DNA from: an uncultured Pelagibacteraceae bacterium
GTDB lineage: Bacteria > Pseudomonadota > Alphaproteobacteria > Pelagibacterales > AG-422-B15
NCBI GenBank assembly: GCA_902611715.1
Contig: CACMAQ010000004.1
Location: 1-60,408, forward strand
Length of the DNA stretch: 60,408 nt
Direction of reading: 5' to 3'
In this document: one piece after another, positions 25,617 through 41,768 of the stretch
How the letters are laid out: each line of letters begins with the position of its first letter
How positions within the stretch are numbered: position 1 is the stretch's first letter
Program-made: the position numbers and the translations under genes
Notes under the pieces: model-generated
The model's database searches: none
What the model was told of the DNA's origin: nothing
What the model saw: only the letters and a program-made list of their open reading frames with translations

Positions 25617-25979
25617 ATGAGCATTTTAGCAAATCCTCTTCGACTAATCTTCTTTTTTTATTTATTTTATCTTTATTACTCATATGTGCGACCTGTGCCT
25701 GTTGACTCTACAGTAAGAGAAGTAGCAAATTTAATTACTGATTATGGAATACACTTTATCTCATTTTTCATACTTGGCGCCTTGGCACAATTGGCTAACA
25801 ATAAAAACAATGACTTTGTATTTGGTATCAGCTTAGCCCTGATCACAAGTGTTTTTATTGAGTTTATACATTTTTTTATACCGTTTCGTGATTTTGTAAT
25901 AATGGAAGGTTTTGCAAGTATAGTTGGTTGTGTATCAGCTATTTATCTAATAAGTTATTTAAGAAAAAAAAATGAGTAA
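25617..25979 (+). CDS. VanZ-like membrane protein
   Basis: 4 TM; IHF and IEFIHFFIPFR motifs. Confidence 0.6.
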   Translation: MSILANPLRLIFFFYLFYLYYSYVRPVPVDSTVREVANLITDYGIHFISFFILGALAQLANNKNNDFVFGISLALITSVFIEFIHFFIPFRDFVIMEGFASIVGCVSAIYLISYLRKKNE

Positions 25980-26340
25980 ACTTTTAATTAGAAATATATG
26001 TCAACCACCGGATAGCAATCCCTACGGCACGGCACATGGAGCCTGGATCGTGAAGCAAATGGCCCATGGAGGTATTTATATGACTCAGCTTGTTTCAAAA
26101 GGAAATGCCGTATTAGTTGAGTCTAAAGTTAAATATAAAAATCCAATGCATGTTGGTAAATTCATCAATGTTTACGGATCAATTGTATCTGTAAAGCAGT
26201 CCAAAATGATATTCAAAATTACCGCAATGCGTTCTGAAATGAACCAAAAGGAAGTTGAAGTGGCGGTAGGGGAGTTTTCCTACGTTGCTATCAATGACAA
26301 AAATAAAACAAGAAAATTTAAACCAAATTTAAAGATTTAA
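25972..26340 (+). CDS. Hotdog-fold acyl-CoA thioesterase (YciA-like)
   Basis: DSNPYGTAHGAWI and YVAIND motifs. Confidence 0.75.
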   Translation: MSKLLIRNICQPPDSNPYGTAHGAWIVKQMAHGGIYMTQLVSKGNAVLVESKVKYKNPMHVGKFINVYGSIVSVKQSKMIFKITAMRSEMNQKEVEVAVGEFSYVAINDKNKTRKFKPNLKI

Positions 26341-26368
26341 AAAAAAGCCCCCAAATTAATGGGGGCTT
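26339..26368 (-). terminator. Rho-independent terminator oriented for the minus strand
   Basis: aagccccca-aattaa-tgggggctt preceded on + by an A8 run, i.e. a U-tract on the minus strand. Confidence 0.85.
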
Positions 26369-26375
26369 AATGTAG

Positions 26376-26474
26376 TTAAAACGGAGCTCCACTCAAAAAG
26401 TGGAGGTTTCCACATCTACAATCACATGGAATTTCACTACTCGAGCAAAGCTCCTCTATACTACCTATAGACAT
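26376..26474 (-). CDS. Unannotated 32-aa Cys-rich peptide MSIGSIEELCSSSEIPCDCRCGNLHFLSGAPF (or structured sRNA)
   Basis: GAAAGGAGGTG SD 4 nt before ATG, open frame to TAA, terminator 8 nt downstream. Confidence 0.7.
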   Translation of the reverse strand: MSIGSIEELCSSSEIPCDCRCGNLHFLSGAPF

Positions 26475-26559
26475 AGACCACCTCCTTTCATTAAATATGG
26501 TTAAAACTGTATTAGTATATATAATTTACTGGATTCTTATTTCAATCAAGGAGTTTATT

Positions 26560-26997
26560 ATGCAACCCGAATTAATTTTTGAGCCAGTCATCAATATGTT
26601 ATGGCTTTCTCTGGCTGTTTTTGCCTTTGGGACAGTACTTAGACTAAAGGCCATTGTCATCGATAAGAAGAATACAGAAGATGATTTTAAAATACCCACA
26701 TTTGAAAATGGCAGTGAATTAATTCAAAATAGTCAGCGAAATTTGACGAATTTGTTCGAATTTCCAATCTTCTTTTACGCAGTTTGCATTATGATTTATG
26801 CAACGGGAACAGTAGATGAGTATTTTGTGCAACTAGCAACTTGGTTCTTTTGGTTAAGGGTACTTCACTCAATCGTTCACATATTTTACAATAAAATTAT
26901 ACCTGGTGTTGCCTTACCAGTTAGAACGCTATTTTGGTTACCGTCTACGATTATCCTTGCGTGGATGGCTTATCGAGCCTGCTCTTTAATGATCTGA
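26560..26997 (+). CDS. MAPEG family membrane protein
   Basis: NLFEFPIFFY and RVLHSIVH motifs; start moved to ATG 26560 after AAGGAG. Confidence 0.85.
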   Translation: MQPELIFEPVINMLWLSLAVFAFGTVLRLKAIVIDKKNTEDDFKIPTFENGSELIQNSQRNLTNLFEFPIFFYAVCIMIYATGTVDEYFVQLATWFFWLRVLHSIVHIFYNKIIPGVALPVRTLFWLPSTIILAWMAYRACSLMI

Positions 26998-27419
26998 TGT
27001 TAACTAATATTTTAGTCCCAGCGCTTGGGCTTATTTTATTAACTTTTGTTATTGGATTAATTCATACAATCGCATCAGTTAATCTAATGGGTAAAGGCAA
27101 GGACTGGGAGGAAAGTGGAATTCCTATTGAGCCATATAAAGATGCACCACTATATTTAAAAATTATAAAAAATAATATTTCAAATATATTTGAGTTTTCA
27201 GTTATTTTTTATTTTCTAATAGGCGTTATCGTTTTTATTGAAATCGAAAGTACTTTTTTGCTAATTTGCGCATGGCTATATTTATTATTTAGAGTGATCC
27301 ATTCCACTATACACATCTGTTTCAATAACACTGCGGCAAGAGGCGCCATATGGATTTTTTCACAAACTGCTTTGTTGTTATTGTTTTTTGGAACAGCGTA
27401 TTATGTTTTAAGTAGCTGA
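26997..27419 (+). CDS. MAPEG family membrane protein (paralogue)
   Basis: NIFEFSVIFY and RVIHSTIH motifs; TGATG coupling. Confidence 0.85.
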   Translation: MLTNILVPALGLILLTFVIGLIHTIASVNLMGKGKDWEESGIPIEPYKDAPLYLKIIKNNISNIFEFSVIFYFLIGVIVFIEIESTFLLICAWLYLLFRVIHSTIHICFNNTAARGAIWIFSQTALLLLFFGTAYYVLSS

Positions 27420-27857: not shown

Positions 27858-28568
27858 ATGACAAATTTTGGCTATATTCCTGTATATGCGCTTAGATTCA
27901 TGGTTGCATATTTTATTGTAACGAATGCCGCGGCAATGATTTTATTTCCAGGTGGAACTTTATTTAATCCAGATTTAAATTCTTACTCTTTTACTGGAAA
28001 TTTTTTCAGTGACCTGGGAATCACATTTACTCGCGACGGCACCCAGAACTTTCTCTCAAGTTTTTTATTTAACAGTTCTTTATTGATAATGGGATTATGC
28101 GCTGTCTCTCACTTATTTGTACCAAATTTATTTAGAGAGAATAAGAAAACTTATGTGATTTCAGTCATTGCCTCGATTTTATTAGTTATCTCCGGCATAT
28201 CTTTTATTGGCGTTGGTTTAACACCAGCTGATATTTATTTTGAAGAGCATGTTTGGTTTGTTATTTTAGCTTTTAACGCTCAAACTGTTGGTATTTTTTT
28301 TATGACAATCGCATTTTTACTAAGCAAAATAAGTAATAGATATACTATTGTTGCTTTTATCTATTTTATAAATGTTGCTCTTTATACAATATTTGAAACA
28401 AGTGAACCTCCACCTGACTTCAATCCATTTGAATTGGAAAATGTTGGAGAGTTCATAGATTATAACCGTTTCACAATATCAGTTATTTGGCAAAAAATAA
28501 TTACAGTTATTTCTATGATAAGTATTCTGATCTTTACATTTGGATACAAGAAACTTTTAAATGACTAG
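27858..28568 (+). CDS. DUF998/Frag1-like polytopic membrane protein, copy 1
   Basis: FPGG, YSF..NFFSDLG, TPADIY...H and QK motifs. Confidence 0.7.
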   Translation: MTNFGYIPVYALRFMVAYFIVTNAAAMILFPGGTLFNPDLNSYSFTGNFFSDLGITFTRDGTQNFLSSFLFNSSLLIMGLCAVSHLFVPNLFRENKKTYVISVIASILLVISGISFIGVGLTPADIYFEEHVWFVILAFNAQTVGIFFMTIAFLLSKISNRYTIVAFIYFINVALYTIFETSEPPPDFNPFELENVGEFIDYNRFTISVIWQKIITVISMISILIFTFGYKKLLND

Positions 28569-29277
28569 GTTCTGGTGTGTGCATATCCTACGAATTGCAT
28601 CTGCATATTATATTTTTGCGGTAATCATTGCTATGCTTCTCTATCCTGGCGGTAATCATATAGAGCTAGATCAAGTAGGTTATTCATTACATAAGAATTT
28701 TCTAAGTGAGCTAGGTTTTCATAAAACAATGTCTGGAGATTTAAATTTTTTTTCATCCTTTTTTTGGAATACTGCAATGTACATGCTCTTATTACAAGGT
28801 ATAGCTTTTTTGTTTATTCCGAGTTTATTTAGAGTAAATCGTTACTCGTTTATATTTGCTTGTTTAGGAACATTATTTATGTTTCCGGCTTGTGTTTTTT
28901 TTGTAGGTGTTGCCTTAACACCAGGTGATATTTACTTTGATGCACATCTATTTACTACAACTATGGCATTTAATTTATACTCTGTAGCAATTCTTTTTTA
29001 TGTTCTTGCTTTTTTATTTAGTCCATTATCAAACTATTATGCGTCAGGAGGTATACTACTTTTTATAGCAGTAGGAGTTTATGCTTATTATCTTGGTGAT
29101 TTTCAGCCGATTGATGCGATAAATGATCGTGTTCGTTTCTTAGAAACGTACACAATGGACTTCTTAATATTTAATGTAGTGCTGCAGAAGGTGATGATTA
29201 TTCTAATGATTACAACAATTATCATGTTTACGTTTGGCCTCGATAAGTTAATAGGAAAAAAAAATGCAAATAACTAA
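28561..29277 (+). CDS. DUF998/Frag1-like polytopic membrane protein, copy 2
   Basis: YPGG, YSL..NFLSELG, TPGDIY...H and QK motifs. Confidence 0.7.
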   Translation: MTRFWCVHILRIASAYYIFAVIIAMLLYPGGNHIELDQVGYSLHKNFLSELGFHKTMSGDLNFFSSFFWNTAMYMLLLQGIAFLFIPSLFRVNRYSFIFACLGTLFMFPACVFFVGVALTPGDIYFDAHLFTTTMAFNLYSVAILFYVLAFLFSPLSNYYASGGILLFIAVGVYAYYLGDFQPIDAINDRVRFLETYTMDFLIFNVVLQKVMIILMITTIIMFTFGLDKLIGKKNANN

Positions 29278-29947
29278 ATTTTGGACAGTCTATGTCATTC
29301 GATTTGTATCAATTTTTTTTGTTGTATCAGTAATTATTGCTTCATATTTTTTTCCAGGAGGAAACATACACAATCCTGACCAAATAGGTTATTCATTTAG
29401 TCATAACTTTTTAAGTGAATTGGGCGGGTACATTACATTTGCAGGAGATATTAACAGCATTTCATCATTTTTTTTTAACTCCGCGCTTTTTTGTTTTTTA
29501 TTGGTTGGAGTATCAAGCTTTTTTATTCCATCATTATTTAAAGAAAATAAAGTTTCATATCTTTGTGCATGTATAGCAGCAGTACTATTTTTCATTGGTA
29601 TGGTCTTTTTTGCTGGAGTAGCCTTAACACCGCATGATTTATATAGAGATGCACATATATTTTTTGCTTTGAATGCATTTCGTTGGTTAGTACCAGCATC
29701 GCTATTCTTTGTAATAGCCTTTTTTTTAAGTGATGCAGACAATAAGTATACTGTTGTGAATATTATTTTTCTTATATCAACTGTTATCTATGTAATTTAT
29801 CAAATATACTCCGGGGATCCAAGACTGAACGAAGAACTATTAGTGCAAAATGTATTAATGCAAAAATCTATAGCAATAATCCATATTATCAGTATTTTTT
29901 CTCTTACCTTCTGCTTCAATAGCCAAATAAAGAATAAAAATTTATAA
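29264..29947 (+). CDS. DUF998/Frag1-like polytopic membrane protein, copy 3
   Basis: FPGG, YSF..NFLSELG, TPHDLY...H and QK motifs. Confidence 0.7.
   Translation: MQITKFWTVYVIRFVSIFFVVSVIIASYFFPGGNIHNPDQIGYSFSHNFLSELGGYITFAGDINSISSFFFNSALFCFLLVGVSSFFIPSLFKENKVSYLCACIAAVLFFIGMVFFAGVALTPHDLYRDAHIFFALNAFRWLVPASLFFVIAFFLSDADNKYTVVNIIFLISTVIYVIYQIYSGDPRLNEELLVQNVLMQKSIAIIHIISIFSLTFCFNSQIKNKNL

Positions 29948-41676: not shown

Positions 41677-41768
<92 letters not shown>

Follow-up and report, generated by a model that had tools for sequence, protein, structure and literature searches.

Dual-function small RNAs such as SgrS/SgrT, RNAIII/hld and SR1/SR1P encode a small protein, and leader and arrest peptides of the trpL, tnaC and secM types depend on the ribosome. 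We have analyzed a short transcription unit predicted to lie on the minus strand of a 60,408-nucleotide stretch of DNA (the window; contig CACMAQ010000004.1 of assembly GCA_902611715.1) from an uncultured Pelagibacteraceae bacterium of the SAR11 family AG-422-B15. It comprises an extended Shine-Dalgarno sequence (SD), a small open reading frame (ORF) enclosed in a long hairpin, and an intrinsic terminator. The closest described systems are the rre small mRNAs of alphaproteobacteria.

The best characterized of these, rreB of the Bradyrhizobiaceae, is an mRNA of 165 nt with its own promoter and terminator (Hahn et al. 2017, RNA Biol, PMC5711450). In the sections of that paper on which we draw, rreB is reported to bind the 30S subunit strongly and to be translated weakly. 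The RNA is stabilized on removal of the start codon; its turnover is start-codon dependent and its expression is regulated at the ribosome. The synthetic Rre peptide was unstructured by circular dichroism and nuclear magnetic resonance (CD/NMR). Analogues with 16-17 nt of complementarity were described in the Caulobacterales, Rhizobiales, Rhodobacterales (rreR) and Rhodospirillales, the criterion being perfect complementarity to the 16S 3' end, found by BLASTN, and a form starting with ATG was noted in Azospirillum. RreB has 14 amino acids (aa), and RreR of the Rhodobacter/Roseobacter lineage has 18 aa. The peptides are kept within lineages but not between them, their function is unknown, and the genes of different lineages lie in unrelated contexts. 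Overproduction of the RNA left growth unchanged, and on this basis the authors argued against simple ribosome sequestration as the main function (PMC5711450).

We consider it probable that the SAR11 unit is a small mRNA of the rre type, specific to one SAR11 family, with a predicted length of ~150-175 nt and its own predicted transcription start and terminator. The promoter-like site, the extended SD and the open frame were read from the sequence, the long hairpin was defined by folding, shuffling and pair changes, and the local hairpin by a terminator-like scan together with an RNAalifold consensus. The features of the unit are as follows.

26545-26518, minus strand: putative promoter, TTGAAA (26545-26540), a 16-nt spacer and TATATA (26523-26518).
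26490-26472, minus strand: extended SD, TGAAAGGAGGTGGTCT, followed by ATG.
26489-26474, minus strand: region forming 16 contiguous pairs with the 3' tail of the genome's own 16S rRNA.
26474..26376, minus strand: small ORF of 32 codons plus TAA, MSIGSIEELCSSSEIPCDCRCGNLHFLSGAPF.
26464-26372, minus strand: long hairpin around the ORF, from codon 4 to 4 nt beyond the stop codon.
26405-26387, minus strand: alternative local hairpin CUCCACU/AGUGGAG.
26368-26339, minus strand: intrinsic terminator with a 9-bp stem (26368-26345) containing 6 G-C pairs, a 6-nt loop and 8 U.

The extended SD is exceptional and beyond chance, and to this extent the sequence-only reading, which had singled out the anti-16S sequence in front of the ATG, was right. 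Pairing was assessed against the 16S 3' end of the same genome, located on contig C27. The 26489-26474 helix comprises 14 Watson-Crick and two G-U pairs, and in the predicted duplex the final pair is made between the A of the ATG and the U preceding GGATC of the 16S tail. Throughout the genome this is the longest contiguous complementarity to 16S outside ribosomal DNA (rDNA), covering 15 of the 16 nt tested, compared with 13 for the runner-up. When a 19-nt tail was used for duplex calculation the SD was the best non-rDNA site at -27.5 kcal/mol among 6171 sites containing GGAG or GAGG, for which the median was -9.2 kcal/mol and the second-best non-rDNA value -23.0 kcal/mol. Twelve of 14 aligned family sequences share the same 15 nt in front of the ATG. 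The two SD variants carry either GATCT or, in the L021 type, GGTCC with an extra G ahead of the ATG; those with GATCT reach 15 Watson-Crick pairs. We assume that the innermost two or three 16S positions may belong to helix 45, and that formation of all 16 pairs may then need local melting. The predicted probability of being unpaired is 0.44-0.52 in the SD region and 0.17-0.19 over codons 4-9. An SD that is half open, followed by codons that are mostly paired, fits a docking site and then a barrier.

The extended SD contains an ATG of its own (26485-26492, minus strand, ATGAAAGGAGG...), which in the window is out of frame with the ORF and opens a frame of nine codons. In the L021 type the single-nucleotide insertion brings this ATG into frame, giving a 39-aa form consisting of MKGGGP plus the peptide (protein P0002).

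The transcript is predicted to be strongly folded. The region 26339-26495 is GC-rich for this genome, at 39.5% compared with 33.5% genome-wide (897-kb assembly, 60% complete), and the minus strand of 26339-26520 has a minimum free energy of -61.6 kcal/mol (z = -5.2), with none of 200 shuffled sequences folding as well. The plus strand of the same stretch folds less stably, at -48.4 kcal/mol, and the G-U pairs favor the minus strand. The GC richness, the dense structure and the preference of G-U pairs for the minus strand had been noted in the sequence-only reading, which proposed serial hairpins. A better description is a single long hairpin running from codon 4 to just beyond the stop codon, which is found in every genus of the family with a stability of -29 to -42 kcal/mol. 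Its outer stem, GUAGU/ACUAC followed by GGAGC/GCUCC, is near-invariant. Among the individual pairings suggested earlier, ctata/tatag is lost in relatives, ttccatgt/atgtggaa is retained as the apex of the long hairpin, and ctccact/agtggag is retained as the conserved alternative local hairpin.

The two arms of the long hairpin behave differently. The 3' arm, which encodes the conserved motif GNLHFxSGAP, is frozen, while the 5' arm varies between genera with retention of pairing; the segment GGAAACCUC is the pairing partner of one arm. Shuffling the variable 5' arm alone weakened the hairpin in all ten representatives, with z = -2.5 to -6.5 and a fraction of <=0.012 of shuffles as good. Pair changes are of the same kind. 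Among the 26 distinct element sequences the first base of codon 27 forms U-A (16), G-C (3), G-U (1) or A-U (4) pairs, the third base of the Leu codon (CUC/CUU) forms C-G (2) or U-A (6), and several other positions alternate G-U with A-U or G-C. These pairs are taken from each sequence's own minimum-energy fold, and the statistical weight rests on the shuffle test. Within the window's genus alone there is no covariation in the hairpin, because almost nothing varies. We conclude that the RNA structure is under selection.

The alternative local hairpin at 26405-26387 cannot form together with the inner part of the long hairpin; it is kept with changes from C-G to U-G and from U-G to U-A. Just upstream of it lies ACCUCC, an anti-SD-like sequence that could pair with the core of the SD.

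The terminator, whose minus orientation and position after the ORF had been correctly noted, begins 7 nt beyond the stop codon, and across the family the gap from stop codon to stem is 7-11 nt. Its stem is kept across genera through changes from G-C to A-U and from C-G to U-G or U-A. The run of T lies only on the minus-strand side. The convergent thioesterase gene shares this hairpin, but only a poor T tract follows it on the plus strand, and transcription from that side may continue past it, antisense to the small unit. A plus-strand origin for the whole element, as a riboswitch or 5' untranslated region of the neighboring MAPEG gene or as a plus-strand ORF at 26400-26504, was rejected. The G-U pairs and the T run work on the minus strand only, the antisense frames are broken in other genera, and the probable MAPEG promoter is downstream of the conserved core.

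The small ORF was found just as had been read from the window, and comparison of homologues shows that both its frame and the hairpin are kept in relatives. We found the element in all 113 loci examined from four genera, many of them repeat copies of the same genomes, with 26 different sequences of the element and 15 of the peptide. The ORF is 32-33 codons long, with a distance from ATG to stop of 99 or 102 nt only. ATG is present in all 15 variants, and neither ATG, TAA nor the SD spacing varies, the one exception being the 1-nt insertion in the L021 type. Both ends of the peptide are kept, as MSISSI[EM]E at the N-terminus and GNLHF[LVM]SGAP[FNVK] at the C-terminus, and 13 columns are invariant (M1, S2, S5, E8, G22-N-L-H-F and S28-G-A-P). 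Ten of ten representatives have no stop in frame 0, compared with one to five in each of frames 1 and 2, and the three antisense frames are broken in genera g7 and g5 and in two of four representatives of g6. The chance that a shuffled middle section stays open is 0.36-0.54 per lineage, or about 0.03 for four lineages taken as independent. The length of the ORF changes by a net 3 nt only, whereas insertions and deletions outside it are of 1, 2 or 3 nt. Replacements at codons 3, 6, 24 and 27 are synonymous or conservative: most variants have one of the Ile codons ATA, ATC and ATT at position 3, position 24 is CTC or CTT, and position 27 is TTG, GTA or ATG, specifying Leu, Val or Met. These features of the reading frame suggest that the small ORF is translated.

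A phmmer search of 1.84 billion protein representatives returned one true homologue, the 39-aa L021-type protein P0002, indicating that gene callers miss the small gene. Two further matches were to repeat proteins and were judged spurious.

The peptide had been proposed to be a Cys-rich mini-protein that binds metal or As(III). In the window's genus it does have four Cys and one His with the spacing C-x6-CxCxC-x3-H. However, Tyr takes the place of C21 in three g1/g7 variants, the L021 type and g7 have lost C17 and C19 as well, and all eight variants from g5 and g6 are devoid of Cys, leaving no invariant Cys column. Nor do any arsenic or metal genes adjoin the small unit. The homologues thus contradict metal binding, which we reject as extremely improbable, with a genus-specific secondary role at most. 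A type I toxin was also rejected, as the peptide sequence is not hydrophobic.

No other part of the locus is as conserved as the unit. When 27 loci from the window's genus were aligned over 3.2 kb and divided into 50-nt bins, the lowest numbers of variable columns were found at 26380-26429 (9 of 53) and 26430-26479 (9 of 51), compared with 12-45 per 50 in the flanking coding bins to the left of the unit. As judged from the alignments, it is under strong purifying selection.

Among the genomes searched, the unit is restricted to one SAR11 family. BLAST detected it in 45 of 58 family genomes, in all 11 that are of high quality and in all four genera (g1 34/44, g5 5/6, g6 4/5, g7 1/2), while there were no matches in 24 sister-family genomes. 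A covariance model built from 17 family sequences scored 165-189 bits in 45 of 57 family genomes. Out of 91 sister-family genomes 20 gave matches to the model, with a maximum of 33 bits; the best of these span the terminator only, and an inspected full-length alignment (L134) has neither the SD nor the conserved blocks. MAPEG1 (described below) was not found in five sister-family genomes with the MAPEG query used, and so these provide no syntenic site for comparison. When the pattern GAAAGGAGGTGRTCY was sought in 399 genomes of the order, the non-rDNA forms GGTCT, GATCT and GGTCC were confined to this family; in the window's genome, GATCC corresponds to the 16S end read in antisense. Finally, a degenerate DNA pattern of the C-terminal motif matched 44 records among 185,579 species, all of them labelled Pelagibacteraceae or Pelagibacterales, and one AG-422-B15.

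The GATCC form, the 15-nt complement of the family's 16S 3' end, is absent from all 274 genomes searched of g3, the largest sister genus. This set includes many single-contig genomes that are 99% complete, and the 16S 3' terminus of g3 must therefore differ within those 15 nt.

How closely does this unit correspond to the rre mRNAs? Both are alphaproteobacterial, have an intrinsic terminator and are of similar size (~165 nt for rre, and a predicted ~150-175 nt in SAR11). In the published description, as in the SAR11 unit, the SD helix reaches the first base of the start codon, the short ORF is kept within a lineage but not between lineages, and the peptide is unstructured, by CD/NMR for rre and by prediction in SAR11. 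In each the ORF lies inside a conserved hairpin and the function is unknown.

We looked for an rre-type pattern of SD followed by GTG in 151 genomes, about one for each alphaproteobacterial family, and found it in six; the reversed control gave none. At all six loci an ORF of 21-26 codons lies in a long hairpin, which codons 3-5 close together with a segment beyond the stop codon, and a strong terminator follows directly. The order of SD, start codon, hairpin-enclosed ORF and terminator is that of the SAR11 unit. Moreover, the SAR11 covariance model aligns end to end and in the same register with three of the six.

These six loci (L168-L173, from six families) encode peptides with a W[IV] motif that begin MSH, extended in five of them to MSHCH, and they share a CAAC-containing sequence just upstream of the SD. 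The MSH-type peptide seems, from these sequences, to be more widely conserved than the published 14-aa and 18-aa forms.

A number of observations weigh against assignment to the rre type. The SAR11 start codon is ATG whereas that of published rre is GTG, although the ATG form in Azospirillum indicates that GTG is not strictly defining. Two of the 16 SD pairs are G-U, compared with perfect complementarity in published rre. At 32-33 codons the ORF is about twice the length of RreB (14 aa) or RreR (18 aa), and there is no detectable similarity between the peptides. The three rre-type loci aligned by the covariance model score weakly, at 18.3, 10.9 and 10.6 bits (E = 0.013-0.45), and the remaining three do not reach E = 1; these scores allow common descent as a possibility, and the likeness may be convergent or carried by the SD and terminator. 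Thirteen of the 58 family genomes gave no BLAST match, all of them 51-87% complete. Variable sites show no excess at third positions (16, 18 and 17 of 34 for the three codon positions), which indicates that the middle of the peptide is not under classical purifying selection, and the conserved blocks are frozen at all three positions, a pattern that could arise from RNA constraints alone. AlphaFold, given the 15-sequence alignment, predicted no secondary structure, with a predicted local distance difference test (pLDDT) of 60.3 and a predicted template modelling score (pTM) of 0.13. Four peptides had no match in Pfam or NCBIfam, a PDB profile search gave one chance match at E = 1.7, and the best ESM Atlas score of 0.76 lay below lead level. 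Last, the metatranscriptome contigs that cover the unit (see below) are strandless, also span flanking genes and may include DNA.

Several of these points would suit a purely non-coding structured RNA, either binding 30S or the anti-SD, or acting as a small RNA that pairs through its SD-like or anti-SD-like segments, with the ORF a by-product. The even distribution of variable sites, the blocks invariant at every codon position, a clearly selected hairpin and a peptide predicted to be unstructured are all as such an RNA would have them, and rreB itself is weakly translated according to the published account (PMC5711450). But the ATG, at ideal spacing, and the TAA are invariant. Such an RNA would also leave unaccounted for a frame 0 that is open in all ten representatives despite a diverged middle, length changes of 3 nt only inside the ORF compared with 1-3 nt outside, and the synonymous or conservative replacements at four codons. 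Furthermore, no Rfam family was matched. A scan of the window at gathering thresholds returned only a tRNA-Ser at 41682-41768, and a permissive scan of 26100-26800 gave only sub-threshold matches driven by the terminator. We regard a non-coding RNA as unlikely. Like the dual-function small RNAs, the SAR11 unit is a short structured RNA with a small ORF and constraints at the levels of both RNA and peptide. It differs from them in that its dominant conserved feature is pairing with the ribosome, and no base-pairing target or seed has been identified.

The unit is flanked by two plus-strand genes, one on each side.

25972-26340, plus strand: 4HBT-type thioesterase, convergent with the small unit, with its stop codon at 26338-26340.
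26560-26997, plus strand: MAPEG1, the first of two MAPEG-family genes.

The order VanZ-like gene, thioesterase, small unit (on the opposite strand), MAPEG1, MAPEG2 is the same in all four genera, and protein identity across genera is 61-80% for the thioesterase and 45-74% for MAPEG1. The two MAPEG genes lie in tandem (26560-27419, plus strand); MAPEG2 starts at 26934 and, as listed, overlaps the end of MAPEG1 by ~60 nt. Further along the plus strand, 27858-29947 holds a tandem array of three paralogous ORFs (236, 238 and 227 aa) whose hydrophobic sequences are similar. They share the motifs YPGG, FLSELG and ALTP.D.Y, and resemble a family of small membrane-protein genes.

The consensus promoter scan did not list the promoter-like site at 26518-26545. 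The blocks TTG[AC]TTGAA and ATTATATA are kept in all 14 aligned family sequences, and may be conserved for either strand. A perfect TATAAT on the plus strand (26520-26525), ~34 nt ahead of the start codon of MAPEG, overlaps the minus-strand TATATA. It probably serves the MAPEG gene, and the divergent small unit and MAPEG may share a single AT-rich -10 region. The position of the TTGAAA and TATATA sequences suggests a minus-strand transcription start.

Fourteen RNA-labelled runs contain part of a 501-nt stretch around the small unit, and in four metatranscriptome runs from four studies, inspected over 25900-27100, contigs span the unit in every case. An RNA contig extends from 26497 across the terminator as far as 26134. 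A single strandless contig in one run (X5) stops at 26497 and continues with 19 adapter-like letters, which we take to be the start of the Illumina read-1 adapter. This is a weak hint of a possible discrete RNA end at 26496-26497, 7-8 nt upstream of the region of complementarity.

The setting of the unit allows for a device acting in cis, either by antisense or promoter interference on the divergent MAPEG gene, or as a leader-peptide attenuator, where masking of the terminator by a ribosome at the stop codon would let transcription continue antisense into the thioesterase gene. The conserved gene order, the overlapping -10 elements, the spacing of only 7-11 nt between stop codon and terminator stem, and the RNA contig passing through the terminator would all be compatible with this. 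Yet there is no downstream gene on the minus strand, the next gene being the convergent thioesterase, which leaves a classical attenuator without a target. Because these small genomes tend to keep their gene order, synteny is weak evidence; antisense or interference would require neither conserved peptide ends nor an extended SD, and the rre genes described elsewhere lie in unrelated contexts (PMC5711450). We consider a cis-acting role very unlikely. The unit resembles leader and arrest peptides in having a conserved C-terminal stretch that ends a few nucleotides before an intrinsic terminator. It differs from them in lacking a same-strand downstream gene, and no alternative antiterminator structure was identified.

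Our search of the literature on small RNAs, SD sequences and small ORFs in SAR11 and Pelagibacter, and on work following up rreB and rreR, found no description of the unit, although a supplementary listing is conceivable. None of the motifs in the section examined of Meyer et al. 2009 (PMC2704228) has these gene neighbors. In a Red Sea mdRNA-Seq paper (PMC5069720), SAR11 reads were mapped to a clade Ia genome, which is uninformative for this family.

For an rre-type mRNA, the elements of the SAR11 unit suggest the following mode of action. The 5' part of the RNA would dock on the 30S subunit through the 16-bp helix with the 16S 3' tail, ending at the first base of the ATG. The ORF of 32-33 codons would sit almost wholly within one long hairpin that closes just after the stop codon, with the terminator directly after. 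A ribosome would bind very tightly, yet would have to melt the whole hairpin in order to make the peptide. Both the output of peptide and the turnover of the RNA would then be set at the ribosome, amounting to ribosome-regulated expression as described for rreB. Strong 30S binding combined with weak translation are properties demonstrated for rreB only, according to the published account. For the SAR11 unit, 30S binding and translation are inferred, and so is any cellular role of the peptide or the RNA. The idea in the sequence-only reading of a dual-function small RNA or a ribosome-sequestering RNA may point in the right direction, since in the published work rreB binds 30S strongly and is translated weakly.

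A more far-reaching proposal is that the RNA is the main product, a ribosome-docking device that senses or tunes the pool of free 30S subunits in an extremely streamlined ocean bacterium. A subunit would be captured by the 16-bp SD helix, and whether it went on would depend on the hairpin spanning the ORF. The GNLHFxSGAP sequence would act inside the ribosome as it nears the stop codon, 7-11 nt before the terminator, and translation capacity would be coupled either to decay of the RNA itself or to transcription reading on, antisense to the thioesterase gene. Taken together we judge this to be quite unlikely. If true, it would make rre-type RNAs general sensors of translation capacity in the alphaproteobacteria.

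Assignment of the SAR11 unit to the rre-type small mRNAs would extend to the Pelagibacterales a class that has been described once, in 2017, and whose function is unknown. The variable hairpin arm has co-evolved with the frozen arm that encodes the peptide, separating three constraints, on the SD, on the hairpin and on the ends of the peptide, and any model of rre function has to account for all three. SAR11 genomes are among the most streamlined known, and have few regulatory RNAs. A unit of 170 nt that is more conserved than the genes on either side of it is, in such a genome, likely to be important.

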